From a virus, in IMG/VR virus record IMGVR_UViG_3300031669_000007, positions 28,631 to 92,630 of that record: DNA of 64,000 nt; one strand, 5' to 3'. Both the position numbers and the translations under genes were made by a program. The stretch's first letter is position 1; the number at the start of each line of letters is the position of its first letter. Below are positions 5,673 through 55,409 of the stretch, piece after piece. The notes below the pieces were generated by a model. The model did no database searches. It was not told the origin of the DNA and saw only the letters and a program-made list of their open reading frames with translations.

Positions 5673-6245
5673 TTACTCAATAATTGCTGTATAATCTTCT
5701 TTAATGTATGATGAACCTGTCTTAAACATTGGCCAGTCAGAAAAATCGCCAGTATTTTCTATCATAATACGCCAATCCGTAGATCCACCACTACTGTAAA
5801 AATTATTTAATGTATCAATATCAAATGGTTCATTCTGCCCAGCTTTGATATTATGCCATTGTTTCTTAAATCTTGATAATCCCTTAACTACTTCTTGCAT
5901 ATCAGGAGAATGTATCTTACCCAAAAATAATGGGTTTTTCGCCAATCTTGATTTATAAAACCAGAGCATTTTAGAAAATATCTTTTGTCCTCTATATTCT
6001 TCTTTAACCCAAATATCATCGACTATGTTCTTATCATTCAATGAAGTATATGCTATTAGTTGATTCCTGTACCATAAAGAATAATAGTCATTATATTGTC
6101 TAACTTGATATTGTTCAATATCTGCGATATATTTCCCGTGTGTTAGCCACAACTCAGAGTGTTCTTCCCCAAACTTTTTTGCAAGGTTAGAATAATCTGG
6201 ACCTCGCCAAGGCATTTCGCTTATAAATTCTATGGATCTCATCAT
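5673..6245 (-). CDS. GNAT-like acetyltransferase with N-terminal tag MRSIEFISE
   Basis: IWVKEEYRGQKIF acetyl-CoA motif A. Confidence 0.65.
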   Translation of the reverse strand: MMRSIEFISEMPWRGPDYSNLAKKFGEEHSELWLTHGKYIADIEQYQVRQYNDYYSLWYRNQLIAYTSLNDKNIVDDIWVKEEYRGQKIFSKMLWFYKSRLAKNPLFLGKIHSPDMQEVVKGLSRFKKQWHNIKAGQNEPFDIDTLNNFYSSGGSTDWRIMIENTGDFSDWPMFKTGSSYIKEDYTAIIE

Positions 6246-6254
6246 GTATTTATG

Positions 6255-6965
6255 CTAAGAGAGGCGATAGAACTTCTCAACCCTCGCCAACCATTTTTCT
6301 ACATAAATATCCCACTCATCGCCTTCGACCACCCACTGTTGATACTCACATGCTCGACTACACATTAAGATAACGCCAGTGCGTATATTTGTTTTATGTA
6401 CTTCGTTGTGTGCCATTGCATAGGCAACAAGCTGAGTCTTATAATCCTCAACCCACTCGTCCTTTTTAGGCTTATTGGTCTGTTTATAGTCGAGAATTGA
6501 CTCTTTTCCGTTCCAAATACCAGCCAAATCTGTTGACCCTGCATAGAGTCCTGGATAGTAAACGGGGACTTCCGTTCCCCATATCTCGTCCATATGAACT
6601 AGGCCCTTTTCTATAATTTGTTGTGCCATTGGATGAGCAATCTGTTGAACAGTGTTTGTTCCTGGGGCTTTGGATTCACCCAAGCAATATTGTTCGAGCA
6701 TCTTATGCATCGTCGTTCCAACTCCGGCTGCTTCTGTTGTGATAGTTTGGGCTGCTTGATGTCCTACTCTTTTACGCCAATTTTGTAGGGCTGCTTTAGA
6801 TTCCTCAGACTTGGTCTTATCTAAGATAGTTGTGACCGAGGGGAGTTTGCTACCGTCAGGAGTATCATATAATCGTTTGCCATCTACTATGGCTCTGGAC
6901 ATTGCTTGATACGTGAATTTTTCTACAATCGGTATTTGTTTTTGTGGGTTAGTTATAAGTGTCAT
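6255..6965 (-). CDS. PD-(D/E)XK exonuclease (RecB/Cas4/MGME1-like)
   Basis: LPSVTTIL, GTTMHKMLE, EVPV..YAGSTDL..ILDYKQ, QLVAY. Confidence 0.88.
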   Translation of the reverse strand: MTLITNPQKQIPIVEKFTYQAMSRAIVDGKRLYDTPDGSKLPSVTTILDKTKSEESKAALQNWRKRVGHQAAQTITTEAAGVGTTMHKMLEQYCLGESKAPGTNTVQQIAHPMAQQIIEKGLVHMDEIWGTEVPVYYPGLYAGSTDLAGIWNGKESILDYKQTNKPKKDEWVEDYKTQLVAYAMAHNEVHKTNIRTGVILMCSRACEYQQWVVEGDEWDIYVEKWLARVEKFYRLS

Positions 6966-7003
6966 GCATTAATTGTATAACAACATACCATCAAAAAGCA
7001 AGT

Positions 7004-7426
7004 TTATTGGCGATTTTTTGCTGCGCTTTTTGCCATATTCGAAACTGTTTCTTCCGAATCTTGTTCCGGCGACGTGTGTTCTTCACCGCTATCTTCGCCG
7101 TCGCCAGTATGCTCTTCATCGGAATCTTCATCCGAATCAGATGCAAGCTCGATTGTATCTTTATTGAAGGTTTTGATTAGGTCTTTTACTGCGTCATTGT
7201 TTTCGAATGCGTCAACAAGTGCATTATAATCGAATGTAGTATCGCCAGCGTTCTGAACCAATTGAATCAAGCTATCGGTGCGTAGTTTTGCAGATAGTTC
7301 TTTATCTTCAGAACGCTTCTTTAAGAACATAAGAACAGGCATAAGATTTGAAGATAGTGTATCTTCGCCGCCACCTAATTGATCTTCTGCTGATGCATCT
7401 TCAAATACTATTTCTCTTATTTTCAT
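7004..7426 (-). CDS. acidic putative internal head protein (tag MKIREIVFE)
   Basis: N-terminal tag; D/E-rich tail. Confidence 0.6.
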   Translation of the reverse strand: MKIREIVFEDASAEDQLGGGEDTLSSNLMPVLMFLKKRSEDKELSAKLRTDSLIQLVQNAGDTTFDYNALVDAFENNDAVKDLIKTFNKDTIELASDSDEDSDEEHTGDGEDSGEEHTSPEQDSEETVSNMAKSAAKNRQ

Positions 7427-8157
7427 TAACGACGCTCTCTACCAAGTGATTCCGGACCACCTGCGGCTGCATCATCTGCGCCAAATTCATCTGGAGGAGC
7501 TTCACCGCCAAACTCATCTGCGCCGCCCATTTCGTCTGGAAGTCCTGCACCAGGCATACCTTCTGCTCCTGCTACGCCCGACATATCCATTGGTTCTTCT
7601 TGAGCTTCGCCGGTTAATGCGCGAGCTGCGCCGTCTACGCCATCGCGTGATTGGTTAAGTTGTTGTGATAATGTTCCTAATACTTGTCCTACTGAGTTTT
7701 TGAATTGATCTGCTTGTGCTGCGCCAATCTGATCACGGATAGTGTCAATAAGTGCAGGAAGCTGTTCGTTCTGTAGTTTGCCTACTTTTTCGATCATGTC
7801 TTGAACTGTGTCAACCATGTCTTTTGCTGCAAGAATAGCTTCTGACTTTCCTAGCTCGCCTTCTTTTAATTTACGCTTTGTTCTTTCTTTTGATTCTACT
7901 AATTTAGTTGCATCAATGAAGCGGGATAATCCTTCAAAGACAATAAGCATTTCTAAATACTGCGGGTCTTGTTCAGCTGTATGGATTAGGCTGCTTTTAC
8001 GGATAGCATTGACTGCCTCCATAATCTTATCACGCATTGCTTCTGCTTTTGCTAGTGTTAGAGCTTCATAATTGATTTTGAATCCAAAACGTGACTCGGT
8101 CACTTTGTTTAGTTTCTTCATTGATGGCTTGTTTTTTGTCATATCTGTCAGTTTCAT
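7426..8157 (-). CDS. putative prohead core/scaffold-like coiled-coil protein
   Basis: coiled-coil, acidic G/P/E tail, LVE/LKE candidate cleavage sites; TAAATA upstream. Confidence 0.5.
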   Translation of the reverse strand: MKLTDMTKNKPSMKKLNKVTESRFGFKINYEALTLAKAEAMRDKIMEAVNAIRKSSLIHTAEQDPQYLEMLIVFEGLSRFIDATKLVESKERTKRKLKEGELGKSEAILAAKDMVDTVQDMIEKVGKLQNEQLPALIDTIRDQIGAAQADQFKNSVGQVLGTLSQQLNQSRDGVDGAARALTGEAQEEPMDMSGVAGAEGMPGAGLPDEMGGADEFGGEAPPDEFGADDAAAGGPESLGRERR

Positions 8158-8210
8158 GTTTGTGGTTTCCTATTAAAAACGCTTAATGTATTTATACTCA
8201 ATTAAATAAT

Positions 8211-8717
8211 TTAAGAAAGTTTTCTAATTAATCGCTTCACCGCTGCAACATTGTTCTCTAAATCTTGTTTAATTAATCTAAGTTTACCTTTTGTTTCTTC
8301 ATAGCGGCTTGAGTATAAGTCTATCTTAAATTGATCCTTGGCCGCATGAGCAGCATCTAATCTAACCCTGAATATAGACTTATCCAAGTCAAGTTTCCCT
8401 ACATATAAATCTATTCTATATAATTCTTTTGCGGCATCTACTCTGCCCAAGTGCATTAAAGAACAATAGAAAATAGCACTTCTCTTATCAGTGAACTCTA
8501 ACTCTTCTACACGCCAACATATATCTGACACCTTCTCTACTTTATATGTTGCAACGAGATAGTCTCCATTCTGAAGTAGCATACAGATGGGTAACTTGCT
8601 CTTTTTTTGAAGTTCTAGCAGTTCGTTTCTTGTCCACTCAGTTACGCGATGTAAGCCGTATGCCTCAATGACGTCTAATTTTTTATCGGATTTTTTTAAG
8701 ATAGATTGTTTTGCCAT
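8211..8717 (-). CDS. hypothetical protein
   Basis: ORF track; likely start MAKQ. Confidence 0.55.
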   Translation of the reverse strand: MAKQSILKKSDKKLDVIEAYGLHRVTEWTRNELLELQKKSKLPICMLLQNGDYLVATYKVEKVSDICWRVEELEFTDKRSAIFYCSLMHLGRVDAAKELYRIDLYVGKLDLDKSIFRVRLDAAHAAKDQFKIDLYSSRYEETKGKLRLIKQDLENNVAAVKRLIRKLS

Positions 8718-8892
8718 CGTTTTTAGTTCTCTTAAGGACATCTTTCTTAACTAGGCTACTGGCAATTAGCTGTTCTCTTGGATTTAGACTCTTCTTAAAT
8801 ACTCCGCCTGTCTCATTAAATTTCGACAATACTTCCCATTCCTCATTATTAAGTGGTATAGAAATATTGTTTAATAACTCGACGATTTTAAT
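8683..8892 (-). CDS. 69-aa protein absent from the ORF track, probable ATT start ((M)KIVELLNNISIPLNNEE...)
   Basis: GGAG about 7-8 nt upstream of ATT; no in-frame ATG/GTG/TTG back to the stop at 8980; fills the gap between two genes. Confidence 0.65.
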   Translation of the reverse strand: MKIVELLNNISIPLNNEEWEVLSKFNETGGVFKKSLNPREQLIASSLVKKDVLKRTKNDGKTIYLKKIR

Positions 8893-9478
8893 TTTGTATC
8901 TCCCTGTTCTTTTTACGTTTAAGCCCTGTCCTAATTTTAACCCAGGCTTCTTTGCGTTCAGCCGACCATTTCTTGTCTGTCATTGCCTTAGCTATTTTCT
9001 TGCTTGTTTCTTTTAATTTAGGGCTCGTTTCTTTAGTAAGTCCGGTATTCCAGGACGTTGATACACCAAGCTCTTTTTTAAGTTTATTGTTCTTCTTTCT
9101 TGATTCATTCAGATTACGGGTATGTTCAGCAGTGCGTGGTTTATGATAAGCATGTTTACTGCATATTCTACCCTTCTCGCCACCACCGTTTAATCCATTT
9201 TCAGGTCTTAAATTAGCCCAATTTTTTGATTCAACTATCTTTTCTTGTTCTGAAAAAATCTCAGCAAATTTTTTGCATTCTTCTTTATCATAAAATAAAC
9301 AGAACCAAACTGTTTCAACATATTCTTTACCGTGTTTCATATTATGATTTTGCCAATATTTTCCAGATCCAAAATATGTAAGCATTTCTTCATAATTAGC
9401 AACCGTTTTGCCAAAATACAACTTGCCGGTTATGCGGTGTCTCTTTATATAAAGATATGTTGGTTTAAACTCTCTCAT
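8888..9478 (-). mobile_element. GIY-YIG-like homing endonuclease (paralog of 916..1563)
   Basis: PTYLYIKRHRITGKLYFGKT..YFGSGKYW..WANLRPENGL; WNTGLTKET. Confidence 0.8.
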
Positions 9479-9909
9479 GACTGTAGCCAAGGCTCGATAA
9501 AAATATTCTTAATGGCACCGTATGGGTGAAAGATGGGTAATATAAAACGTGCCGTCTCATCTAATCCAGTGATGACTGGCACTTGCTCAAAATCGGCATT
9601 TAGTGCAGACATTGGCTTGCCAGGCAAGTCATATACGCCCTCTGCTTCAATGGCCCAAGACCACTGCCATATAGTCTGGACTCCCGAGTAGAATTCTCCG
9701 AAATTATAAAAATCTACGTTGTCTTCGAATTTCTGCGGTAATTTGATATTCAAGGGTTGTGTTTTTAATCCAATACATTGTAGCACTGTTTCCCAGTTGC
9801 GCTGCTGGTTTCTTGCGATATCTTCTGTGTCAGAGCTTCGTGTTACTCCGGTAGCAGTTATATCTACTAAGGAATAGCCTATAAAGAATTGTGGATTCGC
9901 CGCGCTCAT
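9475..9909 (-). CDS. conserved jumbo-phage protein
   Basis: SLVDITATG..RNQQRNWETVLQ; TAAATA immediately upstream. Confidence 0.55.
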   Translation of the reverse strand: MSAANPQFFIGYSLVDITATGVTRSSDTEDIARNQQRNWETVLQCIGLKTQPLNIKLPQKFEDNVDFYNFGEFYSGVQTIWQWSWAIEAEGVYDLPGKPMSALNADFEQVPVITGLDETARFILPIFHPYGAIKNIFIEPWLQS

Positions 9910-11783: not shown

Positions 11784-12434
11784 TTATGCAACCCATGGGT
11801 CGACGATCACCGGGAAGTCTGATCCTCTAGACATTACGTTGTCGTTATGTAAATCCCAATACCAGTTCTTCTTGTCGGATATATTGAATAAATCAAGTAT
11901 AGTAGACAATAATAAAGCGGTCTTCTCACGTCCAAGATTCTTGGTTAATTGATTAAACCATTTTTCTCCATCGTGCTCTGCCTCTGTGCCCAGTTCGTGA
12001 AACACATTTGATGCATTTAGTCTATGAGCTGACCAAGAAATATTTACGCCTGCTCTTGCGACTGCTAACCCAATGACATCATTTTCATTGAGTTTCTCCT
12101 GACGAATCTGTAGATATGGGTTACCATTGAACATAAAGCTCTCAAACCCATAGAACTTAGGTAGAAAAGGATTGTTTTGTCTATCCATGCAATACTTGGC
12201 CCAGAAGAAGAACATTTTTTGCCCTTTAGTAAATTGCGGTTTTCCCGACGTCGTTAGACCTTTCCCAAACTGAGTTCCAAATATCTTTAAGACTTGACCC
12301 GTGCTTGGTTCTAAGAATGCCATCTGATCGACTCCCTGACCCAACTTCTTATATCCTTTTGCCCTAAGAATCTTAGTAATGTCTACGTGATTATCGCTAT
12401 ATTCATCTATTTGTTCTATTTCGATTATTTTCAT
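11784..12434 (-). CDS. protein-kinase-like enzyme (tag MKIIEIEQIDE)
   Basis: LGQG Gly loop, VLK, FLPKFYG, QEKL, DLHNDNVM, VIVDP. Confidence 0.8.
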   Translation of the reverse strand: MKIIEIEQIDEYSDNHVDITKILRAKGYKKLGQGVDQMAFLEPSTGQVLKIFGTQFGKGLTTSGKPQFTKGQKMFFFWAKYCMDRQNNPFLPKFYGFESFMFNGNPYLQIRQEKLNENDVIGLAVARAGVNISWSAHRLNASNVFHELGTEAEHDGEKWFNQLTKNLGREKTALLLSTILDLFNISDKKNWYWDLHNDNVMSRGSDFPVIVDPWVA

Positions 12435-22505: not shown

Positions 22506-23939
22506 TTATTTCTTAGCTCCTAATCCTGATATCATTGATTTAAGTCTGGCGGCATTAATTTCTCCTGCTCCCTTACCTGTAATCTCTGCCTCAGTCTGAC
22601 TTACTGCGGTTGTGGTTGTTGATTTTGGCTTAATCTTACTCAGGATACTATTTGCTACTGATGGTGGTATTCCCGAATCTTCCTCGCCAGTTCCGGCATC
22701 TACAATACGCAAGCTGTCTACATTAAAGTCTAATTCCACCTTGGTGCCGATACCAGAGCTTGAACGAGTTTTCAACAGTTGAAGTTGATACTTGCCGCGC
22801 TCTCGCATTGCGCGGGACGTAAAGATACCAAACACGTTATCTGCTGTGTTGATCTTGCTAATACCGCCTGAAATGTGACTGTGGTCAAATTCAACTTCAT
22901 CTACTGCTGATCTATTTAACTGTGATGCTGTAATGAATAAAATATTTAATTCCCTAGCCAAGTTACGCAATTCTTCTGAAACATACTTATCCTTGACGAA
23001 TAAGTCGTTCGGGCTAACCTTGGCTGATACTGGCATCAGCAGATCCAAATAATCCACCATTAAGAAATCTACCTTCTTTCCAGTCTGAATCTGAAACTCT
23101 CTAATATAAGCACGAATATCGTTTACGTTAGATTGCGCTGGCATATATTTAATTTGAAATGCTCCAGACTTCTTAGCTGCCATTCGAACCTTAAGTTCTA
23201 CGTCGTCTAGGTTCTTAAATAGCTCACGTGTGCTTACGTTTGCAATCATTGAATCGATACGCATTGAACATAGGCCCTCGCTTAATTCTAATGTTAAATA
23301 GATACCATTTAATCCCGCCGTAATCCAGTTTACGGATATATTTTGCATGAATAATGATTTACCTGAGCCAGATCCTCCCGCAAAGATGTTTAGCTCGCCT
23401 CTATTCATACCGCCAAATAATGCTTTATCCAATGCTGGCCAACCTGTGCTAAATTGCCCGTTGCCTGACTTAATTGCCATAAGCCGCGCTCTTGGGTCTG
23501 CAAAGTAATCAGTTCCAATATCCTTAACAAGTCCAATTTGAACTGCATCTTTAATTAACTTCTCAATTGGTGCGCGATTGCCTTTCTCTAAGTAGTCTGC
23601 TGCCTTTAATATGGCGCGTTCTAATGCTTTACTCTGACTAAATCCCTCAAACTCTTCTAAGAACCAATCAGTGTGTTCTTCTGTCAGATCCTTTGTCGGT
23701 TTAAGCGTTGTGCCAACCGACGCGTTAATTTGCTCGATTGTTGGCATTGCTTTATATTTCTCTGTGTGCTCTTTAATGAATGTTGCCGCTGGCTGCAATG
23801 AACGAGCAAAGTTCTTTGAATCAAATATATTCTGCACCCTGACATATGATTCGGGGTGGTCTAACATTATTTCTAAGAATAGTTTCTGTAGGTCGTCGGT
23901 ATATTCTTTTGCTTGTGTTTTTTCTTCTTTATTATACAT
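22506..23939 (-). CDS. replicative DnaB-like helicase (T4 gp41-like)
   Basis: GGSGSGKS Walker A, LELSE, VDYLDL, TASQLNR, KTR. Confidence 0.95.
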   Translation of the reverse strand: MYNKEEKTQAKEYTDDLQKLFLEIMLDHPESYVRVQNIFDSKNFARSLQPAATFIKEHTEKYKAMPTIEQINASVGTTLKPTKDLTEEHTDWFLEEFEGFSQSKALERAILKAADYLEKGNRAPIEKLIKDAVQIGLVKDIGTDYFADPRARLMAIKSGNGQFSTGWPALDKALFGGMNRGELNIFAGGSGSGKSLFMQNISVNWITAGLNGIYLTLELSEGLCSMRIDSMIANVSTRELFKNLDDVELKVRMAAKKSGAFQIKYMPAQSNVNDIRAYIREFQIQTGKKVDFLMVDYLDLLMPVSAKVSPNDLFVKDKYVSEELRNLARELNILFITASQLNRSAVDEVEFDHSHISGGISKINTADNVFGIFTSRAMRERGKYQLQLLKTRSSSGIGTKVELDFNVDSLRIVDAGTGEEDSGIPPSVANSILSKIKPKSTTTTAVSQTEAEITGKGAGEINAARLKSMISGLGAKK

Positions 23940-25011
23940 ACTTCTTCCTCAATAATTTTATCTTTAGTGGATTAGATTCTATAGAATCTAATATAGTTTT
24001 AAGCACGAATAATTTTCCATATTTTTGAACTGCTTGGTTAATATCTACGCACGTCTCTGCCCATATTGGGAAACTAACTGACCAGGAATTGGCCAGTGCC
24101 ACATCTATAAGATTTCCGCCAGTCTTGTTCCAATCCGGAACCACAATAATTTCTCTATCTAATCCTTCTATAATATCAATTTGAGTTTTGGTTATGTCTG
24201 ATTTAAGAACAGCGACCGCATCAATACTTATCGCATCAAATACACCCTCGCAAACAATTACAACCTTCCAGTCTTTTTTCTGTTTATCAATATTAAATAC
24301 ATAACCAGTGTCGATATGCTGAATATACTTAGGCGTAATGTCATCATTTAATGCTCTGGCGGTAAATCCTATTATTTCATTTTTCCAAGTAAATGGTATA
24401 ATCACCCGTTTATTCATTTTATTTTTCGTATCTGTTGACCAATAGAAATCATATTTTTGCATGTCTATCTTACGGTCATATACATATTCAACCGAATCTA
24501 TTAATCCTCGAGGAAGTGGTTTAAAGTGTTCAGGCGTGGGTTGATGCTCGTCTATTCCTTCATTTGCTAAGATAAAGAAATCCATCATACCCATGAAAGA
24601 TAGTGCCTCGTCTGGTAAAGGTTCTTTCTTAAAGTCTACCTTTACTTCTTCTTTCTTGTGTTCAATCTTTACCAAGCCGAGAAGTTCTTGTCTTTGCTGT
24701 TCACGCTTTGCTTCAATGTTTAGCCGCTGTATCTCTGCTTCGTCTACGTTGAGCCATCTTAGCAACTTACGGAATTTGTAGTATAGCGGATAGCCTGGAG
24801 TATAACTGGCTCTGAAGTTGCAGTTGAAGCAAGAATACGACACTGTTCCATCAGCATTTGCAATCATTCCTCCACGACCACGCGTATCTGCACTTTCGCC
24901 ATTGTGCGGGCAGCAGACGGCATTACCTGAGATCCATCCCTTAGCATCGCGCCTTGTCTTCCTGCCGCTTGTCCATGCGCTTACTGCCGTCGATTGTATA
25001 GGGTTAGTCAT
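23932..25011 (-). CDS. DNA primase (Zn finger plus Toprim; gp61-like)
   Basis: CCPH..CFNC; IIPF..IIGFTAR; CEGVFDA; VPD; DIN. Confidence 0.9.
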   Translation of the reverse strand: MTNPIQSTAVSAWTSGRKTRRDAKGWISGNAVCCPHNGESADTRGRGGMIANADGTVSYSCFNCNFRASYTPGYPLYYKFRKLLRWLNVDEAEIQRLNIEAKREQQRQELLGLVKIEHKKEEVKVDFKKEPLPDEALSFMGMMDFFILANEGIDEHQPTPEHFKPLPRGLIDSVEYVYDRKIDMQKYDFYWSTDTKNKMNKRVIIPFTWKNEIIGFTARALNDDITPKYIQHIDTGYVFNIDKQKKDWKVVIVCEGVFDAISIDAVAVLKSDITKTQIDIIEGLDREIIVVPDWNKTGGNLIDVALANSWSVSFPIWAETCVDINQAVQKYGKLFVLKTILDSIESNPLKIKLLRKKYV

Positions 25012-25076
25012 AATATATTATATAGAATCGTGCTTACAAGAAGCAAGTAATTCGAAGTATTCAGCACTAAAACCGG

Positions 25077-25105
25077 TTGACATTCTAACCGAAAGAGTGT
25101 ATAAT
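25077..25105 (+). promoter_or_regulatory. sigma70-type early promoter
   Basis: TTGACA-N17-TATAAT, perfect consensus. Confidence 0.85.
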
Positions 25106-25111
25106 AGTCTT

Positions 25112-25372
25112 ATGATACATGTCAAAACACTAGTCGAGGATTTCCCGCATCTCGTGCATAAAGCACGGAAAATCTGGTGCATCGAAACCTTTGGGAAACC
25201 ATTTGGCGGTAAGCCTGCACCCGGAAAGAATTCTGAAACTAAGTGGGTAGACTGTCGCTGGTCACAGTATAATACATATTTTCGGTTTAAGTATGAAGAA
25301 GATGCAATGATATTCATACTTAGGTGGGGCGGAGAAGTTAAGAATAAAGTTAAATGGAAAGTAAAAGAATGA
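25112..25372 (+). CDS. FxLRW-family small protein, leaderless start
   Basis: ATG 6 nt after the -10 box; FRFKYEEDAMIFILRWG. Confidence 0.7.
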   Translation: MIHVKTLVEDFPHLVHKARKIWCIETFGKPFGGKPAPGKNSETKWVDCRWSQYNTYFRFKYEEDAMIFILRWGGEVKNKVKWKVKE

Positions 25373-25782
25373 AAAACACATGGGATAACTTGCCAAACGG
25401 AAAAGCCATTGATCGAGTCTTAGTCGATGTCTTTAAGAATCCACAAATTTGGGAAGAAATGTATAACGAAATGTATAATATTCCTGTAGTGTCAGACCAA
25501 AGAAATAGTAATTGTTGGAATGCAGTGTGGATCAGATCCAGAGAAAAGTTAAAAACTATGGATCGTTATGATCTGTGGTTAGACATTTCAGAAAGAATAG
25601 TCACACCGGAAAATGAAATGTCATGGGAAGGTGCAAAGATTTGTGCTAGAAGCACGATTTTAGGGTTGCTTAGTAACGACGAGTGCGGAAATCTTCTAGA
25701 CAGTGATCCTGAACATATCAAGTTACTAACGATTCTTGGTGACGATTCAATAATGATGATATGCCCGGCTGTATGTCGTTAA
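25354..25782 (+). CDS. hypothetical protein
   Basis: ORF coupled to the previous gene. Confidence 0.55.
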   Translation: MESKRMKNTWDNLPNGKAIDRVLVDVFKNPQIWEEMYNEMYNIPVVSDQRNSNCWNAVWIRSREKLKTMDRYDLWLDISERIVTPENEMSWEGAKICARSTILGLLSNDECGNLLDSDPEHIKLLTILGDDSIMMICPAVCR

Positions 25783-25794
25783 ATCCTAATCGAG

Positions 25795-26661
25795 TTAAAC
25801 ACGGTATAAAATCTGAGTCACATGTGACGGATTAACGTTTCCGCTTGTTGGCGCAACAACAAACCTAACCGCAGTATAAACACCATCAAAATTGCAATAT
25901 GATGTGGCCGTTTGTGCTGTATAATTTAAGATAGATGTGTTTCCTGACAACGGCATGACATTTGCAGTTGATGTCAATTCAACGACTCCCCAACTTACCT
26001 GTGGGCTCCCCGCTCCAACCAAAGCCAATGAATCAAGCGTTCCCTCTACAGTAATATTTCCGGTAAAGCCAACTGTATCAAAATTGATCTGCGCTGTGTG
26101 ATGTGCCGACTGTTGTAGTGAATTAATATCTGCACTAATTGCAGCAGATGTAATCGTAGTATTGTTATTGCTTGGCAAATCTACAACTATGCTAGGCAAT
26201 AGCGTTGGATATGGACCATCTCGTAGTAGTATTTCTCCACGAGATTCATAGTTTTCGTCGGTGTAGACCACCTCTGTTATTCCTGTTACTGGGTCAGATA
26301 CCGTTAATGCATAGTTATAGTAGGGTTGTGATAAGTCAATGAGATCAAAAGCAGTTAATCGAACAGAGATAATTCCTTTGACTGCATCAACGATTGTAAT
26401 TCCGCCGTTTGTGTTACTATTCTTAGTTACTACAACTGCACTCTCAGAATCTGATATCATATTAAATGTAATGACCCAACCAGTGATATTAACTGCTTTC
26501 TGATCTGAGTTTTTCCATACAAACTGTATGATGTTGTCAACGCCTTTATAAATCTTTACTTGTCTTTGATACATGGTTTTCCACCTCGCGGTAATAGTTG
26601 GGTCAAGGTTGCATTGAACCGTGACGGAGTTTGGATAAAAATAAGTGTTCATTCTTTGCAA
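25795..26661 (-). CDS. virion structural protein (BppU-like/Ig-like baseplate-type)
   Basis: IYKGVDNIIQF..NSDQKAVNITG; beta-rich; TTG start with GAGG. Confidence 0.6.
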   Translation of the reverse strand: MQRMNTYFYPNSVTVQCNLDPTITARWKTMYQRQVKIYKGVDNIIQFVWKNSDQKAVNITGWVITFNMISDSESAVVVTKNSNTNGGITIVDAVKGIISVRLTAFDLIDLSQPYYNYALTVSDPVTGITEVVYTDENYESRGEILLRDGPYPTLLPSIVVDLPSNNNTTITSAAISADINSLQQSAHHTAQINFDTVGFTGNITVEGTLDSLALVGAGSPQVSWGVVELTSTANVMPLSGNTSILNYTAQTATSYCNFDGVYTAVRFVVAPTSGNVNPSHVTQILYRV

Positions 26662-26663
26662 AA

Positions 26664-27128
26664 TTACCTCTTTTCAGAATCTGGCATATCGAGCCAAGTT
26701 CTATTTCCTTTTGATATATTTATCTTACCCTCTAATATCTGTAAATTGGATAGACAATGGAAACCCTGAACAATTTTTGAGTTAAGTGGAACGATATGAT
26801 CTACATGATAATCTATATTGGTAATTATAGATTTTGTGTGTGCAACAATATATAATTCGGTTATACATAATTTCTCTAACCAATTATCTGACCATGCAGG
26901 TGTGGCCTTTATTTTCTTGGCTCTTCGTTTAGCATTTATCTCTTTGACTTTTTCTGGGTTAGCAGTGCGCCATTTCTTATTGTATTCTGCATTCTTTTCT
27001 GGATTGGCATCTCTCCATTTTTTGATCTGTTCTGTTCCAGATTCTCTAAACTTTTTTTGATATTGCCTAACTTTATCCGCATTTTCTTTACGCCATATCA
27101 GGCGGTGATTTTCTTTTTTAGTGTCCAT
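26664..27128 (-). mobile_element. HNH homing endonuclease (paralog of 14532 and 57823)
   Basis: KATPAW..YHVDHIVPLNSKIVQGFHCLSNLQIL. Confidence 0.88.
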
Positions 27129-27184
27129 TATGTATTTATGCAAGTTTTTCTTCCGCACCTGATTCCGAATTGCTAAATATTCGT

Positions 27185-27562
27185 ATGGAAGAAAACGATA
27201 TTAAACGTATTATGGCAGACAAGCCTTACCTGTCACTATTGACGTATGGCGGCAATGATTATTTGGGTATTATTCAGAACATCGACGACACCATTACCAC
27301 AATCTATGATTTTGGTTCTCTCAAAACAGAAGATCAGAAGATTGTATTCTTAGAGTTGGCTGAGATATGGTGGATGGAGAGTAATCGACTTGTCCCAATC
27401 AATGTATTCTTGCGCGTAGAATGGGCAATCTTCCGTCCTACACTAAAGACACTAAACTCTAAGGATGTTGATGTTAAGCTAGGTCCTCATCTAAGTCTTA
27501 AAGAGATGGCTGCTAAGAAATCAAAACGTAGATCAATTACTCTTGTTCGTCGTATGCAGTAA
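27185..27562 (+). CDS. conserved jumbo-phage protein
   Basis: YLGIIQNID..IYD..WWMESNRLVPINVFL; TAAATA 5 nt upstream. Confidence 0.65.
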   Translation: MEENDIKRIMADKPYLSLLTYGGNDYLGIIQNIDDTITTIYDFGSLKTEDQKIVFLELAEIWWMESNRLVPINVFLRVEWAIFRPTLKTLNSKDVDVKLGPHLSLKEMAAKKSKRRSITLVRRMQ

Positions 27563-29542
27563 ACGGCGATCCATACTTAATAACTGCCAATGGATAGGTT
27601 TCATCAGTAAACTCTAATGAGTCGAGAGACTTATTAAACTTCCCTTTCCCCAAGTTTGCTTTACAATTCCATTCGTTTTCTAACCAGCTTAGCCAGTCAG
27701 GTATATCACCGTCGTATTGAGCACGGTGTTGATCATTTATGATTTTCTTCCAATTATACGGATATGGATTAGGACCGCTAAACGATATTTTCATAATGCA
27801 GGTGGTCCATACTTAAGAACTGCTAAGAGATAGTTATCATCCTCAAAGATTAGTGCAGCTATGCATTTATCATCACCAAATTTCCCCATCTCTACTTTAC
27901 ATTTCCATTCGTTTTCTAACCAGTTTATCCACTCAACTAAATTACCGTAATACATTATGCTGTGTTGATCTGAGATAACCATAGCCCAGTTAGTTGTCTT
28001 TTCATAATTATCTTTAAACGATATTTTCATTGTTTGCATACCTCAATAATAAAAGTGTGTAATGTTCATCATCTACTTCTATCCTCGTAATTTTTTCATC
28101 TCTGATAGTGATTACAATTCCTAGCGTATTATATGCCCACTCTATAAATATTCTCTCGCCTACAGATGACTCAAGGTCTTCTTTTGGTAGAGAATTTCCA
28201 ATGGATTCCATAAAGTCATCCCATACACCAGCTATAGGCGGCCTGTCAGGAACATTGTCTAATGTATCAATAGAAAAGAGTATCATGCGGCATACTGTAA
28301 TAAAAACATTGTTAATTCTTCATCATCTACTGTTACGGCATAGATAGCGTTTTCTTCTTTATCTTTGCCAATCTTTCTTCTTTTATAGATGACCTTGCTT
28401 GATGGTATTCTTTCAGTCAATGACTGAACATATTCTTCTGTTGTTACGTCTGTTCCATCGTCGAATACTTCTCTAAAATACCTGGCCGCTGCTCTCTTAA
28501 AGGACTCGGCGTTGTGGTCGAGATATTTTCCATCTACAGCTTCAAAACTAATTGTTATCATGGCGGAAACCTTATTAAGAGCATAGTATAGGCAGAGTCC
28601 TCTACATCTATTCCGGCAATATGCCCAGGAAAAAGTCCGCCCGGATCGTTAAGAACTGTTATCTGCCAGGTATCTTTAAGCCAGGCACGAAACTCTTCGT
28701 ATTCATTGGCATGACCAATTCCCTTCCACGGGGATTCTTCTCTAAGTGCTCGAAGTATCTTAGCCCAATGAATAGGCGAAGTGCCTCTAATTGGAAAATA
28801 TCCGGCATAATCAACGATGCGATCAGTGAAAGATACTATCATTCTCCGAACCTCAACATAAAAAACATTGCGTCCTTCTCCTCTTTGAAAGCATAAATGT
28901 GATACTTTAAGAAAACTACCGTCCAATCTTCGTTTTTCTTCCCCATACAAGTATTAAGCCAAGCTAAACGATTACAGTAGTCTTGATAGGTATGCTTCTT
29001 ATTAGCTCTAATAATATAGGGAAACCTGGCGTTATAGGGTAATTTTTCAATCATATCCGTATTTTAAGAGTAGCATGGTAAAAACTTCGTCGGGCAAATC
29101 AATATATTCAAGGTGTCTAACCATTGTATATTTTTCGGAAAACATAGCATCTATGCCGTGTTCTCCTCTGACATAATTGTAGAAATCATCATCAAAGAAG
29201 CCAAACCCGGCATCATTTCTTAAATTAATCAAGATCTCTGACATCTTCCGACGAAGAGCATACTCTTTTTCACCGGGTGCAGGAAGGTGGTTATTGTATA
29301 TTATTCTCATTCAAATATTTAAGTAACAAAAATGTATATTCTTCATCATTGACCTCTAATCCTATAATGTTCGAATTGATATCATCATTTTTAAATGTTA
29401 AATTGATTGTCCATTTTTTGTTAAGCATTGATATAAAGCCCTCTTTATCAATTTGATCGCTTTTACTGGTCACTTTATACTCTTCCGCAAGTCCGCGCAA
29501 TACAGCAAAACAGGGGTGACGGTTAGTTGGTTTTATTTTCAT
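27537..29542 (-). repeat. tandem array A1: 8 small FxL(R/K)(W/Y)-tail genes (27537-27794, 27791-28030, 28014-28286, 28283-28561, 28558-28842, 28839-29054, 29047-29310, 29291-29542)
   Basis: C-termini FTDETYPLAVIKY, FEDDNYLLAVLKY, VDDEHYTLLLLRY, VDDEELTMFLLQY, VEDSAYTMLLIRF, FKEEKDAMFFMLRF, LPDEVFTMLLLKY, VNDEEYTFLLLKY; all overlapping/coupled. Confidence 0.85.
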
Positions 29543-30155
29543 TCTTAAATTCCCACAACGAGTTTTTCTCTTGTTCTGCTATTAAATTCATATGGACCAC
29601 AACAAGGTGAGCATATCCAACAGCATGTGCTTTCTTGAAGGTGTATCCATCGTCTGTTTTATCCCATATTGTTTTTGCAATCTCTGCCCAACTCTTTCCT
29701 TGCAAGTGTTTCTTTCCTGGACGGATCAATGCTAGGAACATAGCCATGCGTGGTATTGAATTGATTGGTTCCGGCAGCTTGCTTATCGTTTCGTGATAAT
29801 TGCCAATGTGTATTAACTGCTCGCAAAAGTCTTTCTCAAGCAATCGTGTCCACGGCGGATCAGTAAGCATCAGTTTCAACAAGTGTGCCTCTGATTGAAC
29901 TTTTTCATATACTGATACATTGAGTAGGTCTACTTTAAAATACCCGCGTTCTTCCGCTGCCTTATAGTCAATTGTTGCCAAGTTATTTACATCGTGCGGT
30001 ATGTCTGTAAAATATACACCGGTCGCATGTTTACTAAGAGCTGCATCTGTTCTTATCATGCTCGCGTTGATATGCTTGAGATGAGCCAAAGCAGCATCTC
30101 TGCTGCCAAAGTCTATGTCGATGTCACCTTTAAATTTTTTAATTTCTTCGCTCAT
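29523..30155 (-). CDS. minimal DNA polymerase III alpha (C-family) catalytic core
   Basis: DIDIDF, KHATGVYF, YFKVDLLN, LALIRPG, FKKAHAVGYA. Confidence 0.88.
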   Translation of the reverse strand: MSEEIKKFKGDIDIDFGSRDAALAHLKHINASMIRTDAALSKHATGVYFTDIPHDVNNLATIDYKAAEERGYFKVDLLNVSVYEKVQSEAHLLKLMLTDPPWTRLLEKDFCEQLIHIGNYHETISKLPEPINSIPRMAMFLALIRPGKKHLQGKSWAEIAKTIWDKTDDGYTFKKAHAVGYAHLVVVHMNLIAEQEKNSLWEFKNENKTN

Positions 30156-30407
30156 GCTGTAATAAACTCCAACGGACGTGGTTCTATTCTTATTTCTACG
30201 GGAAACCTCGGTAAACTCTCGTCTAACTCTTCGTCACAGTATATACCGTCAGCTACAATGTTATCACCTAAGAAATAAACAAACTTCTCTATCGACGGCC
30301 GCGATGCTCCTGAGTCAAATATAATAAAGTATATACGGGTCAGGATTCTTCATCGCTGCTAAAATCTGCTTTGAAAATCTTGCCGTTACGTTGGTTACTC
30401 CATTCAT
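30152..30407 (-). pseudogene. hypothetical gene with a 1-nt frameshift near 30326 (probable assembly error)
   Basis: ATGA overlaps at both ends; 256 nt; removing one T from CTTTAT gives an 84-aa ORF. Confidence 0.65.
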
Positions 30408-33028
30408 TGCTGATACCTTAGAATAAACATTGTTTCGTCTTCTGGCTTATCAAATACTAACTTTGCTTTAAATGCCATTCTATGAAAATCGTAGTATTCT
30501 TGTACGACATAATTCCCAGGATAATTTTTTTGCATTTGTTCTGCCACATATAGTATTGTATCCTCTTTGCCAGGATTGAATGTTTTCTCTGAGTAGATCT
30601 TATCTAAATATCTGTTATAGTTCATGCTTTATTCTCAATGACGATTATCTTCCCCACCGCAGTGAGAACAACGTCGCATCTATATCGTTAAAAAATCTAA
30701 TGCCTGATCTTCCTGTCCCATCGTTTGCTTCCCCTATAGTCCAACGCTGTTCATCTGGAAGCGGAGGATTAGGCATGTTTTCCTCTAACCACAAGCCTAT
30801 ATCTATCTCGGACTTACCCTTTGTTGCCGAGAAGTAAAATTCTAAATCAACCATTATGCCCACTTCAATGCGAACAATATCGCATCCTTCTCGTTGTCGA
30901 AGCACCACACTACTTCTCCTTCTTTGACACCTGCGTATGTAATCATACTGCTATCGTCATCATCAAGACAAGTATTTTCTTCGCACCACTTTGCCATCTC
31001 TTCCATTTTTGCATTTCGAGACTTTCCCCAAATTGAGTCTAATATAGTTGATACTCTGTGGTCACCAAACAACGAATCTTTCTTCATGCTAACTCCACTT
31101 CAATAAAAACAAGGTAAACTGTTCTTCATCCATATATGCAGTCCACAGGGTTGATCCTTTGTATATTTCTACGGTTAGACCAAATTTTCTATCGAGTAAT
31201 CTCTTAATTTCTTCTATGCTTATTAACGCAGTAGAAAACTTGTTTGCGTTCATCTCAGATCTAAAGCAATCATAAAACTTTGGATAATCCTGGAAATCAA
31301 ACTGTATCATTTCCACCTTAATAAGAAAAGCATCAAGTCTTGTTCATTAACAAAATAATATGTATCACCATTTACTATATACCAATCTGACTCTTTAAGA
31401 TTGTCTTTCAACCAATCATATCTATTTTCGAAAAGATCGCTGTTCGTTTTTCCATATCTATTTTCGAAAAGATCGCTGTTCGTTTTTCCATGCAGCCTTG
31501 TCTTAAAGGGCCAAATCTTTTTATTCAATTCTCTCATAGCCAACGCAATGTAAACATTGTAGCATGAATTGGGTCACGAAAGTAGAAGATCATGCCGTCT
31601 CTATACCACATTTTTTCACCGAAAGTCTCCGTGCAATAGGGTTCATATTTGAATCCCTCTGACATAAATGCTCTTGTTGTCATCTCAACTCGAACCCAAA
31701 AGATTTCTTTCCACAATAGATGCAACGGCATACTTGTTATTGTTGTTAATTTATCGAACCAAGTCTCTTTTCTCATGTCAGCTACACTGTAAGATAAACA
31801 ATGTTAGATCTTCTTCTGTATTAAATATTATCGAAAATACCAAGTCTTCTGCGACTTCAACCACATAGTTTCCTGGATATTGAGATTTGATGTAACTTTC
31901 AACTTTTTCTTGTAGTCTTGTATCTATGGGTTCTCCTCGAAATCGAGTAGAAACGTCTTTATATAAATTATCTAATATCATTGCCATCTCAACCTAAAAG
32001 CAATGCGTCGGGTTCGTATTTGAACCAAAAAAGAACAGAGGTTTGGAACGTGATTGGGTTTGTGACTCCTGCAGTTTTAAACCAATTATCCTCGCCTACT
32101 CCGTGATTTAACCACTCAACTATTTTTTCTCTGTTTTCCGTAACGCAGTCGGATGACAGTTGAACCTTATATTCCATTGTTACCCATCCACCGTAACGCG
32201 AAAATAGTTGCGTCCTCTGACTGACTAAACCAGAACCGTGTTCGACCAACTGAGTATGATCCATCGCTCTCATATTCCTCGCACCATCTCTGCATTTTAC
32301 CAAACTCTTCGGGCATCAAGTGTTCAGCTATAGTCACTCTATACCAAGATCCTATCTGTTCCATATTTAATGCGCCAGAATAGTTCATCTGCTGTGCCTT
32401 AATAAGAATAAAGTAGCATCTTCGTCATTTTGAAAATATACGCTAGAATAGCTAGATGTGTATTCAAGATTGCCTTGATATTTTATATTGAACCAAGAAA
32501 TCACAAATGAATATACCTCGGCGTTAGAAAAATCTTTACCCGCAACAATATCACATTCTCGACTGAATTCATTTATAATTTTGTTAAGATCAAAGTTAGT
32601 AATTTTTGTCCCCATCTTATGACCACCGTAATAAAAATAAAGTCGCGCCTTGTTCACTCTCAAAATACCAATCTTTACCACAAGCAATAAATGTATCTCT
32701 CCCGAAGTTTTTTATTGCCCATTGATATGCTGTATGCCAGGATGTATTATCCCACAATGACAAACCAGAAACAACGTGTATCATACTAACTCCATTTCAG
32801 TAAGAACATAACAAGATCTGAGTCAGTTGCAAATTCCAACGATACTGTTTCTATCCAGGATGTACCGATTCCTTCATGCAGCACTCTATTTACCTTTACA
32901 CTGTTTTCTTTTTCCATATATTTAATGTGGTCGTCTGGCACAAGGTGATAATACTGATGTCCGCCCTCATTTCTATAAGCGTTTCGAAACGGAGTAGATA
33001 TCTTTTCGATGGGGATTACTATGCTCAT
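30404..33028 (-). repeat. tandem array A2: 12 small FxL(R/K)W-tail genes (30404-30625, 30645-30854, 30854-31087, 31089-31310, 31307-31537, 31534-31776, 31778-31981, 31978-32177 frameshifted, 32167-32388, 32385-32615, 32617-32784, 32786-33028)
   Basis: C-termini such as FNDIDATLFSLRW, FDNEKDAILFALKW, FVNEQDLMLFLLRW, FSQSEDATIFALRW, FESEQGATLFLLRWS (55 aa, not in track), FATDSDLVMFLLKWS. Confidence 0.88.
31417..31491. repeat. perfect 36-bp tandem duplication (GKTNSDLFENRY x2)
   Basis: unit catatctattttcgaaaagatcgctgttcgtttttc at 31417 and 31453. Confidence 0.95.
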
Positions 33029-33723
33029 ACTTTGGCCTCTATCAACACAGATTTAATAAACTCGGTGTCGGCAACATAGTCTTTGAATTTGCGATTCCAA
33101 AAGTCTGGGTCAATAAATCTGAAGATCAATGTGACTTGTTCTTCGTTTAGTCCAGATAAGAATGCTATGCCGCTATCGCAGTTATATAGAATCCACGGAG
33201 AGATACGACCATTGACTATCATATTGCATATCTTATTGGGTGCGCCTTCTCGGAAGATATTGTTAAACTGTTTGTCTGTATCGTCTGCCCAGTTCTGCAT
33301 CTCAGTGAATGAACGCTCTAATGCATCATTGGGATGTTCTTTACGCAGATAGTCGTGTAAGTATTCGTCGTAGAACGATTCCTTCGTCCATTGATCTAAC
33401 TTTTTGTTTTCTTTAATGATCCACGCAATAAACATAGGCACATTGATTGCGCGTATTTGCACCAAGTATTGACCAAACTTAACAAATGCAGAATAGTATG
33501 GCGAATCTACAAAGTCGGCATAGGTTTTGGTCTTTGCTGATCCCTGTGTCATCTCATAGAATTTGAGATATGCTTGCATACCAAGTCTTACTCCTGATTC
33601 GTTCTCTTGCTGATATCTGCGTTTCTTTTCACACATATGAACAGACAGCGTAGAGAGTTTTCTAAAACTCTTCTCGCAGTATTTACAAGTATATTTTTCT
33701 ACTGTTGCTTCAATATTTGCCAT
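33025..33723 (-). CDS. conserved zinc-finger protein of the replication module
   Basis: CKYCEKSF..LSVHMC; GRISPW. Confidence 0.65.
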   Translation of the reverse strand: MANIEATVEKYTCKYCEKSFRKLSTLSVHMCEKKRRYQQENESGVRLGMQAYLKFYEMTQGSAKTKTYADFVDSPYYSAFVKFGQYLVQIRAINVPMFIAWIIKENKKLDQWTKESFYDEYLHDYLRKEHPNDALERSFTEMQNWADDTDKQFNNIFREGAPNKICNMIVNGRISPWILYNCDSGIAFLSGLNEEQVTLIFRFIDPDFWNRKFKDYVADTEFIKSVLIEAKV

Positions 33724-33953
33724 ACTTTATTCATTTCCATGTAGTCTACAACACAAACAAACCTATCTTCTGAAAGTTGTTTGACCGGCAACAGCCCATA
33801 AAAAATATATTCCCCGTTATCAACAATACTAGCTTTCTTCCCCAGACTTATTCCATTACTTCTTACTGTGAACGCAGAGAATATTGCTTGCTTGTCAACA
33901 TAAGAACACACTGGCAAACTCTCTACATCAAGATCCACTTTAGTAGTTGTCAT
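33699..33953 (-). CDS. hypothetical protein ending in KVWQILK
   Basis: ORF track. Confidence 0.5.
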   Translation of the reverse strand: MTTTKVDLDVESLPVCSYVDKQAIFSAFTVRSNGISLGKKASIVDNGEYIFYGLLPVKQLSEDRFVCVVDYMEMNKVWQILKQQ

Positions 33954-33958
33954 TTGAT

Positions 33959-34115
33959 ACTAGTCTTTTCTAGTTGTTTCCACATAGCTGAGTATCTTCC
34001 GAAGAAGATCAACAAAAAATGTTAGATGTTCGAGCAACTCGAAAAGGTGCTGCTGGAGATGCAGCAAGAAAAGAGTTAGAACAAAAAAGAATTCTTGAAG
34101 AAATTAGATCAAGAA
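33959..34115 (-). ncRNA. candidate structured RNA/intergenic element with five consecutive hairpins
   Basis: stems at 33959-33974, 33994-34009 (cUUCGg loop on the minus strand), 34029-34043, 34048-34066 and 34092-34115. Confidence 0.4.
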
Positions 34116-34120
34116 ATCGA

Positions 34121-34378
34121 TCAAGAAATTGATGATTCATCTTCTCTCATGAGAATCCAGATACCAAGAATTGCACGAATTATAAATACAACTAATGCAG
34201 CAAGTGGACTAAAAATAATAGCAACTACTGCATAAAAAATACAGTTAAGTAAAAATTTAGTTGATGATTTTAAAGGGAAAATGCTTGGTTGTTCTTTAAT
34301 GATTTCGAATACTTCTGCTATTATAAAGAAAAGAATTAAAGCAACAAAAACGGAAAGAACTGAATAAAGTGCTGACAT
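34121..34378 (-). CDS. small membrane protein (2-3 TM)
   Basis: AAGGAG RBS, TAAATA at about 34406, long hydrophobic stretches. Confidence 0.55.
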   Translation of the reverse strand: MSALYSVLSVFVALILFFIIAEVFEIIKEQPSIFPLKSSTKFLLNCIFYAVVAIIFSPLAALVVFIIRAILGIWILMREDESSIS

Positions 34379-34408
34379 TAGTGACTCCTTAAAATTATGT
34401 AATAGTAT

Positions 34409-34789
34409 TTATACAAGTGTATCTGACCATTTTTTTAAATATTCAAGTTTCTCCGTTCTTCTCTGCTCTATCTCCGGGTACTTAAGAATACAAAACTCTT
34501 TTATCTGTTTGAGCATATCTGCCAGTGCTTCGTCTGTCTCTGCCAATGCAACAATTTCTTCAACCTCTGATGTTGTAAATATTTTCCCCATTTAACCTGG
34601 TCCTGGATAGTCTGTTCCTTTAATTGCTGGTTGTCGATATCTCGGTGAACCTTTGAGAACATAATATACCTCGGCCTTATCCAAGAGTTCTTTCATTGCG
34701 GGATCAGTTTCTGCAAGTTGCATGATTCCCTTCATGGTGTTTATTCTCTTTTGTTCTTTTTTTACCCAACCATCAATCCATGTTGCCAT
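34409..34789 (-). CDS. two small paralogs (34409-34591, 34592-34789) of the LAETDxAL family; third member at 35687-35869
   Basis: LAETDEALADML, LAETDPAMKELL, AQTDEGLTDLL. Confidence 0.65.
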
Positions 34790-37131: not shown

Positions 37132-37953
37132 ATGTATCTGCAAAACAAATATACTACATGTTATTATAACATCATAAACAAAGCAAAGTCAAGAAAGAAT
37201 ATAACCGAATATACCGAAATTCATCATATAATACCGAAATCTCTTGGTGGCGATAATTCTCCTGAAAACTTGGTTAGACTGACTGCACGAGAACATTTTA
37301 TTTGTCATTTACTTTTACCCAAAATGCTTGAAGGTAAAAATAAACGAAGCATGTCTTTTGCTATCTGGTCAATGATGAACTTAGATCATTCAAATAGTAG
37401 GCAACGATATAAGGTAAATTCTCATTTATATAATCTTCTTAAAAAGAAAGTTTCAATTGCCTTATCAGAATTACATAAAGGCAAAGTTGTTTCTAATGAA
37501 ACACGAGAGAAACAATCTAAGGCACGAAAAGGAAAAGAAAGTCCCAACAAAAACAAGCCAATGAAAGAAACGCAAAAAGAAAAATTAAGAGAATTAATTG
37601 CTAAAAAAGGAAAAAGAACATTAAGCAATAATCCTAATGCAAAATCAACTATTGTAAATAGTATGACATATGGTTCTAAATTAGAGGCGTGTGCTTCTCT
37701 TAAAATATCTAAATATAAACTTGATTGCATACTATCCGGAATAGACCGATCAACAAAGGGCAAAAAACAAAGTCCAGAACATATTGCCAAAAGAATTGCG
37801 CCGTTGCGTGGTAGAAAACAATCTATTGAGTCGTGCCAAAAAATGAAAGAGGGGCATAAAAGTAGAGAATACATAATATGTGAATATTGTGGTATATCTT
37901 TTTCAAAACAAAATTATATTAGATGGCACGGCAATAAATGCAGAAATAAGTAA
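37132..37953 (+). mobile_element. HNH homing endonuclease with NUMOD3 repeats
   Basis: EIHHIIPKSLGGDNSPENLVRLTAREHFICHLLL; TATAAATA upstream. Confidence 0.9.
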
Positions 37954-55202: not shown

Positions 55203-55408
55203 CTCAAGATAAACATTGCGAGTTGTTCGTCGTTAACGTGATAAGTAAAATGACTAAATCGGTCTGCCGTTGGCTCAACGTGCAACACGTTCTCTATCCA
55301 TTCAATTGCGCCGTTGCTGTTGATAACAAGAGGCGTTAAGTTTTCTTCATTTTTGTGAAAGTAATAACCAACACTACCGCCAACTATTGTGTAGTCTACC
55401 ATTGCCAT
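55193..55408 (-). CDS. dispersed FxLRW-family small protein
   Basis: VNDEQLAMFILRWS. Confidence 0.7.
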   Translation of the reverse strand: MAMVDYTIVGGSVGYYFHKNEENLTPLVINSNGAIEWIENVLHVEPTADRFSHFTYHVNDEQLAMFILRWS

Positions 55409-55409
55409 G

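Follow-up and report, generated by a model that had tools for sequence, protein, structure and literature searches.

The locus considered here raises the question of what is encoded by 20 tiny, tightly packed open reading frames (ORFs) whose C-termini follow one pattern, and what their products might do. The window, a stretch of 64,000 nucleotides (nt) from the IMG/VR virus record IMGVR_UViG_3300031669_000007, corresponds to bases 28631-92630 of a 92,630-base-pair (bp) virus contig; positions given as contig positions count along the whole contig, and all others are those of the window. The ORFs lie on the minus strand at 27537-33028, and they are genuine genes for mini-proteins of 55-95 amino acids (aa) that belong to one large family, undescribed so far and restricted to viruses. 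An earlier note on this DNA had described the 20 ORFs together with dispersed members at 25112 (+) and 55193, and had read them as a single set of paralogues in which the N-terminal part varies and the C-terminal part stays constant. All were located and belong to one family by hidden Markov model (HMM), and that reading is supported, but the family size was set too low, as about 42 copies are present when arrays outside the window are included.

In a listing of ORFs of at least 40 aa in the region 24500-34500, small minus-strand ORFs form two unbroken runs, at 27537-29542 (8 genes) and 30404-33028 (12 genes), which are kept apart by a 210-aa ORF at 29523-30155 and about 250 nt. The 20 ORFs either overlap by 1-26 nt or are separated by gaps of 0-20 nt, and all of them carry a C-terminal pattern close to x-F-x-F-x-x-E-x-D-A-x-x-F-x-L-(R/K)-(W/Y/F), a strand-turn-helix that is followed by 0-14 residues. 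When an HMM of this tail was searched against the six-frame ORF set of the whole contig, family ORFs were matched at E 1e-12 to 4e-6. A full-length HMM matched 20/20 of the ORFs in 27537-33028 and, in addition, the ORFs at 24806-25372 (+) and 55193-55477 (-). Leave-one-out testing recovered 33 of 38 members at E<1e-3; most of the weak scorers were Y-type members located left of the 210-aa DnaE-like gene, and these were tied together by BLASTP.

Across the contig the count comes to about 42 copies (39 supported by HMM and 3 plausible by eye), which occupy 10,083 nt or 10.9% of its length. Further arrays lie upstream of the window at contig 6191-9732 (locus L001, about 15 copies) and contig 23000-25777 (L002, about 5 copies), and a single copy outside the window was found at contig 12006-12182. 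The array at contig 6191-9732 is flanked by a lytic-transglycosylase-like gene and a 224-aa gene. Because the closest pair of paralogues in the contig is only 47% identical (BLASTP), there is no sign of recent duplication of whole copies.

A profile search of 1.84 billion cluster representatives returned 2,167 clusters (50% identity) at E<=1e-3; among the 150 matches listed, nearly all are 55-110 aa long and carry the domain C-terminally, and a few consist of two fused domains. The neighbours of the family in the ESM Atlas were 94-100% viral. Same-strand family arrays were found at 21 loci in IMG/VR, with 4-26 copies per 20 kb, and whole IMG/VR records of 192-354 kb hold 14-28 copies each; two of those records are 100% complete by CheckV, and one has direct terminal repeats. 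A motif-pattern scan of 185,579 prokaryote genomes found zero relatives of the family, and megablast of the region against cultured phages gave no match. A word-indexed homologue search returned only 5 matches, two of which are close orthologues, and its finding no fusions among longer proteins is weak evidence.

That the earlier note recognised no characterised family agrees with sequence scans of Pfam-A, PHROGs v4, NCBIfam 20, PADLOC 2.0, and the PDB sequences, in which no significant match was obtained for 38 members and 10 database relatives. The best E-values in the curated libraries were 0.005-0.09, each for one member only and to differing families, and no member matched the profiles phrog_4148 or phrog_28039. 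The Zn-ribbon pattern of two CxxC/CxxH pairs was not found, each member having 0-3 Cys and the family one conserved Cys (70%, in helix 1).

Conservation was assessed by aligning 150 database relatives and the 42 local copies (192 sequences) on the family profile. Contrary to the earlier impression that the bodies are barely alignable, they do align: helix 1 has W at 93%, C at 70%, F at 45%, and G at 79%; strand 3 has W at 87%; strand 4 has F/Y and then F at 92%; and the turn with helix 2 has E at 65%, D at 86%, A at 67%, L/M at 87%, F at 93%, L at 96%, R/K at 93%, and W at 89%. The conserved stretch covers profile positions 30-72 and so extends beyond the last 15 residues, and fewer than half of the sequences have an N-terminal hairpin. 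Member 17 (32167-32388) was modelled with AlphaFold2 using 38 paralogues as the alignment, giving a strand-strand-helix-strand-strand-helix arrangement in which the tail is strand 4 plus helix 2 (predicted local distance difference test, pLDDT, 85.6; predicted template modelling score, pTM, 0.73). The model of member 5 (28558-28842), a Y-type protein, has the same C-terminal helix-strand-strand-helix with a different, partly disordered N-terminus (pLDDT 76.8).

According to these models, the constant unit would thus be a helix-strand-strand-helix core of about 45 aa and not a 15-residue appendage. The core would comprise helix 1 (W-C-x-E-x-F-G), a two-strand hairpin (W ... F-x-F), and helix 2 (E-x-D-A-x-L-F-x-L-R/K-W), and many members would append an N-terminal hairpin or helix to it. 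The conserved residues look like a fold core because they are mostly aromatic or aliphatic, together with the helix N-cap E-x-D, their burial being inferred and not measured. The tail is predicted to be the last third of one small compact alpha/beta domain and no separate module. The modular docking helix proposed in the earlier note is therefore disfavoured: the tail is built into a single compact domain in both AlphaFold models, its conserved residues co-occur with core residues of helix 1 and strand 3, and its conservation is partly at the nucleotide level, as a putative Shine-Dalgarno (SD) site for the next gene. Tandem two-domain proteins of the family also occur (P0010, P0015, P0025, P0038, P0051, P0073, and P0130), as would be expected if a coupled junction lost its stop. 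The internal tail of P0010 reads FALTW, with Thr replacing Arg.

Structural searches returned generic matches. With the family model, Foldseek found nothing in the PDB at E<=1e-3, and the best hit of an exhaustive structural search (VIA) had Z 6.7, in a score range that is common for unrelated folds. The VIA neighbours are generic two-layer alpha/beta structures, namely the ArgR C-terminal domain, ACT, PCD/DCoH (Z 5.8), microcompartment shell proteins, and designed sheets; structural matches in BFVD were confined to uncharacterised proteins of uncultured Caudovirales. PCD/DCoH, ArgR C-terminal, ACT-like, and eIF1/SUI1 domains have the same order of secondary structure as the family (VIA Z 5.5-6.7 over 54-70 residues), but they share with it neither sequence similarity nor common ligand or active-site residues.

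The last two conserved codons of the tail (Arg-Trp) appear to serve as the Shine-Dalgarno site of the next cistron. The earlier note had held that the tail is conserved with different codons, which is correct for L, F, D, and A and fails for Arg: at the Arg of L-R-W in this contig, AGG is used in 12/22 and CGG in 4/22 cases, compared with 8.0% and 3.2% in 62 long ORFs genome-wide (p 2e-8 for AGG; p 2e-11 for AGG/CGG together, 16/22 vs 11%). A wider comparison covered 235 family genes at 24 other loci, where the motif Arg codon is AGG in 115/150 (77%), whereas AGG accounts for 6.7% of Arg codons in long ORFs and for 8.8% of those elsewhere in the same family ORFs (Fisher 4e-61). At these loci, NGG (AGG/CGG) was found at the motif Arg in 104/123 genes with an ATG no more than 15 nt downstream and in 15/27 without one (p 0.003), and 142/235 genes (60%) have the ending RW-nn-NTGA. 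AGGUG is complementary to CACCU of the 16S rRNA 3' end. It is this pairing, together with the enrichment of AGG at the motif Arg, from which the ribosome-binding site is read, and the aligned spacing from AGGUG to the start codon is estimated at about 5 nt.

As a mechanism, the AGG-TGG of the terminal Arg-Trp would place a Shine-Dalgarno-like AGGUG just 5' of the next start, which often overlaps the stop (RW-nn-ATGA). Transcription of the array genes would be part of that of the replication-gene operon, and their translation would proceed along coupled chains. The features of translationally coupled overlapping-gene chains were found at the junctions, namely a stop/start overlap or a gap of a few nt and a predicted SD site inside the upstream gene. 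The Shine-Dalgarno constraint was also considered as the sole cause of the tail and was rejected, given that Trp and the rest of the tail are kept where no gene follows (25112 and contig 12006), that L, F, D, and A use mixed codons, and that other SD-encoding dipeptides were not seen.

Selection on the genes was estimated from the ratio of non-synonymous to synonymous polymorphism (pN/pS). Against a near-identical metagenome contig (L053), five members gave a pooled pN/pS of 0.23, and the neighbouring enzyme gave 0.09. For 14 orthologue pairs between the phage contigs L018 and L022, pN/pS was 0.21, based on 249 synonymous and 215 non-synonymous changes. Values of about 0.2 indicate that individual copies are retained and constrained by purifying selection.

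The arrays sit in a block of replication genes that are related, by sequence, to those of phage PA5oct. The mini-DnaE-like protein that splits the main array (29523-30155, minus strand, 210 aa) matches phrog_11778 'DNA polymerase' at E 4e-58 and has 46-50% identity with proteins encoded by three jumbo phages, PA5oct, Atu_ph07, and Phosso. In PAC2, which is PA5oct-like, the order is UvsW ... C2H2 protein, mini-DnaE, opposite-strand gene, 290-aa gene, primase, and helicase, and the order in the window is identical. The C2H2, mini-DnaE, and opposite-strand genes abut in PAC2 and in many uncultured relatives. Junctions were compared among about 45 related loci where each was measurable. At the C2H2-to-DnaE junction the relatives have -7 to 2,802 bp and 0-11 members, compared with 2,870 bp and 12 members in the window; at the junction from DnaE to the opposite-strand gene they mostly have -37 to +25 bp, compared with 1,961 bp and 8 members. 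This variability identifies the arrays as lineage-specific insertions and expansions, placed at two junctions within a replication block that is otherwise conserved. They would have arisen by insertion and duplication at these two places, after which the copies would have diverged and each been retained. A link of the family to the adjacent mini-DnaE-like gene is unlikely because in most relatives that gene has no family member beside it.

The arrays are probably co-transcribed with the replication genes, as the first gene of the array begins before the C2H2 gene has ended. Production of PA5oct is blocked by rifampicin, so the host RNA polymerase is needed, and its promoters have been tabulated as conserved intergenic TTGAC / TATAATA motifs (PMC7318152); phage 121Q has been placed in the same wider clade as PA5oct (10.1101/406421).

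What the proteins do can be weighed against these observations. In the reading that we favour, each mostly acidic, Trp-rich copy would work independently, as a small protein that binds or inhibits a host or phage target of its own; binding would fall in early or middle infection, and specificity would come from the variable N-terminal part and the exposed surfaces. This is suggested by proteins that are small, acidic (31/42 members have an isoelectric point, pI, below 6, and the median pI is 5.1), and Trp-rich, by a conserved core with a variable periphery, by presence/absence variation, and by genes likely read by the host polymerase. Taken whole, with real genes, a one-domain fold, coupled chains, an origin by insertion, and independent small binders or inhibitors, the explanation has about an even chance of being correct. 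A homodimer prediction for member 17 scored 0.17 against a mark of 0.42, and was used neither for nor against binding.

Several points weigh against independent binders. Structure gives no functional lead, because the matches are all to generic two-layer alpha/beta folds with Z<=6.7. Conservation in helix 2 follows two stripes (A, F, W and L, L, R), and one of these could be a conserved surface instead of core. The arrays lie in the replication block, outside a classical terminal early region, and an arms race would not, over this timescale, be expected to leave stable orthologues under purifying selection. In addition, when three family proteins were searched by tblastn, the 50,697 records of cultured phages yielded chance-level matches only (E>=0.06).

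It is conceivable, though unlikely, that the invariant C-terminal strand and helix form a common interface, making the members either adaptors on one shared machine or co-assembling combinatorial subunits in fixed proportions. The specific proposal that this segment docks all members on one shared partner, such as a polymerase, protease, or chaperone, with the variable part picking targets, could draw on conserved residues that are not confined to a single face of helix 2 (D, A, L, F, L, R/K, and W, each at 67-96%), on R/K as a conserved charged residue in that helix, and on bodies that differ in length and N-terminal architecture. It is nonetheless distinctly unlikely: the tail is integral to the compact 45-aa core in both models, its presence co-varies with the conserved helix 1 and strand Trp, the putative embedded ribosome-binding site accounts for part of the R-W conservation, and the adjacent mini-DnaE is no co-occurring partner.

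If members instead assembled with each other as a hetero-oligomer, through pairing of edge strands or helices, coupling would set fixed proportions. When unidirectional genes overlap in pairs, their products are often subunits of heteromeric complexes (PMC10666635), which would suit the tightly coupled junctions, as would the natural two-domain fusions P0010, P0015, and P0025; the nearest structural neighbours also include oligomerising domains and designed beta-sheet heterodimers (Z about 6). These structural matches are generic, however, and one and the same junction has anywhere between 0 and 12 copies in related phages, while a genome has 14 to 28; such variation is hard to square with a defined complex, so that this arrangement too is judged decidedly improbable.

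The same presence/absence variation at junctions could be taken to mean that the ORFs are largely dispensable filler or selfish cassettes, whose 3' end is kept mainly for the ribosome-binding site and for duplication microhomology and not for what the protein does; the AGG bias is extreme at one codon, and one copy is disrupted and one carries a fresh 36-bp duplication. A pN/pS of about 0.2 over whole genes makes this highly unlikely, as do confident fold models and a protein motif that is kept despite synonymous variation at L, F, D, and A and also in members without a downstream start (25112 and contig 12006). The need for an SD site alone would moreover allow other SD-encoding dipeptides, yet Trp is 89% conserved. 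That the members are small nucleic-acid-binding regulators with a fold recalling eIF1/SUI1 and RNA-polymerase subunit L is very improbable, since eIF1, Rpo11/L, and a vaccinia RNA-polymerase domain were matched only weakly by Foldseek and VIA, no better than chance (E>0.05, Z<7), and most members are acidic (median pI as above) with no conserved basic patch.

The individual members are as follows, all on the minus strand. Left of the mini-DnaE-like gene, member 1 (27537-27794, 85 aa) has a Y-type tail ending in LAVIKY, matches the HMM at E 1e-11 (leave-one-out E 0.024), and is 47% identical to member 2 (27791-28039, 82 aa), which has a likely start at 28030 (MKISF). Members 3 (28014-28286, 90 aa) and 4 (28283-28561, 92 aa) are Y-type, and the modelled member 5 (94 aa) is Y/F-type. 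They are followed by member 6 (28839-29054, 71 aa), with a W-type body and a tail ending in FFMLRF, and by two Y-type proteins, member 7 (29047-29310, 87 aa), a paralogue of contig 6426-6704, and member 8 (29291-29542, 83 aa), which has a 97% identical orthologue in L053.

On the other side of the mini-DnaE-like gene are member 9 (30404-30625, 73 aa, YPGNYVV subgroup), member 10 (30645-30854, 69 aa), member 11 (30854-31087, 77 aa, with a WCEEN helix), and member 12 (31089-31316, 75 aa), whose likely start is the ATG at 31310 following an RW-nn-ATGA junction. Member 13 (31307-31543, 78 aa, likely start 31537) contains a perfect in-frame tandem duplication of 36 bp at 31417-31491 (2.1 copies, repeats GKTNSDLFENRY), which has apparently altered the length of the variable N-terminal part very recently. 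Member 14 (31534-31776, 80 aa) and member 15 (31778-31987, 69 aa, YPGNYVV subgroup, alternative start 31981) precede the disrupted member 16 (31978-32177). The frame of the latter stops at 31989 (...PDALLLG), its body alone matches the HMM at E 0.003, and an LRWQ tail with a stop lies in another frame past a run of four T. As had been claimed, one T added to this run restores LLFRLRWQ and a stop ending at 31978, which would overlap the ATG of the next gene. A programmed frameshift in 31989-32177 was rejected; because the site has no canonical slippery heptamer, mutation or a homopolymer sequencing error is the simpler explanation. Member 17 (73 aa) is followed by member 18 (32385-32615, 76 aa, tail ending in LFLLRH) and by member 19 (32617-32784), a 55-aa protein near the minimal core that is absent from the ORF track and had rightly been taken as genuine. 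The start of member 20 (32786-33028, 80 aa) overlaps the stop of the C2H2 gene (33025-33723). HMM matches support the members on both sides.

Of the dispersed members, that at 25112-25372 (+, 86 aa) is on the opposite strand and matches the HMM at E 1e-14 (leave-one-out E 7e-10). A perfect sigma-70 consensus (TTGACA-17-TATAAT, 12/12) is located at 25077-25105 (+) and ends 6 nt before the ATG at 25112; a transcript from it would be leaderless or nearly so, and this promoter would also drive a 142-aa ORF at 25354-25782. The other dispersed member (55193-55444, -) has an uncertain start (ATGs at 55444, 55408, and 55402) and matches the HMM at E 1e-7 (leave-one-out E 9.5e-5).

Other features of the block were recorded. 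Jumbo phages of the PA5oct, Atu_ph07, and Rak2 types, like many uncultured relatives, have kept the stand-alone mini-DnaE (phrog_11778), a fragment-sized homologue of Pol III alpha, next to a C2H2 zinc-finger protein. Between the mini-DnaE gene and the array, the roughly 250 nt at 30156-30403 (-) hold only a 30-codon ORF (MNGVTNV...), and the stop-to-stop frame of the DnaE-like gene reaches upstream to 30233. An endonuclease VII/HNH-like gene (26664-27158, -) and a homing-endonuclease gene (37132-37953, +) are inserted in the replication block near the arrays, and these may be mobile elements in the same plastic junctions.

With more than 2,000 clusters, up to about 40 copies per phage, 11% of the present contig, and a place in none of the curated libraries searched, the family accounts for a considerable and readily identified fraction of the genes that lack annotation in these uncultured large phages, and a family profile would annotate thousands of ORFs. 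At the AGG-TGG junction a protein motif and a ribosome-binding site would occupy the same six bases, which alters the reading of C-terminal conservation and provides a simple, testable model for the translation of long chains of tiny genes. If the members do bind host proteins, the arrays would amount to a ready-made library of small inhibitors.

Some of these properties have parallels in known systems. Translational coupling at ATGA/TGATG overlaps, with the Shine-Dalgarno site within the upstream gene, has been described by Huber et al. 2019 (PMC6728339). The stop/start overlap and an SD site in the upstream coding sequence are found here as well, but in this family, unlike in those cases, the predicted SD site is fixed in two conserved residues (Arg-Trp) and repeated at most array junctions. 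A lineage-specific expansion of a tiny domain in a jumbo phage is represented by the approximately 35 Zn-ribbon copies of Bacillus phage G (Iyer et al. 2021, PMC7824862). In both instances dozens of diverged copies of one very small domain are carried by a giant phage; unlike the Zn-ribbons, the present family has an alpha/beta fold (as modelled) without a zinc-binding Cys/His pattern, occurs in many uncultured phages, and has a stereotyped coupled junction. In T4-type phages, plastic regions lie between conserved core genes. There, as here, variable small ORFs are found between syntenic replication genes and their content differs among relatives, but whereas the T4-type ORFs are assorted and unrelated, a single expanding family dominates the present inserts. 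That tiny domains can expand in jumbo phages was already known, and what appears to be new is a widespread family whose conserved motif has a putative ribosome-binding site embedded in it.

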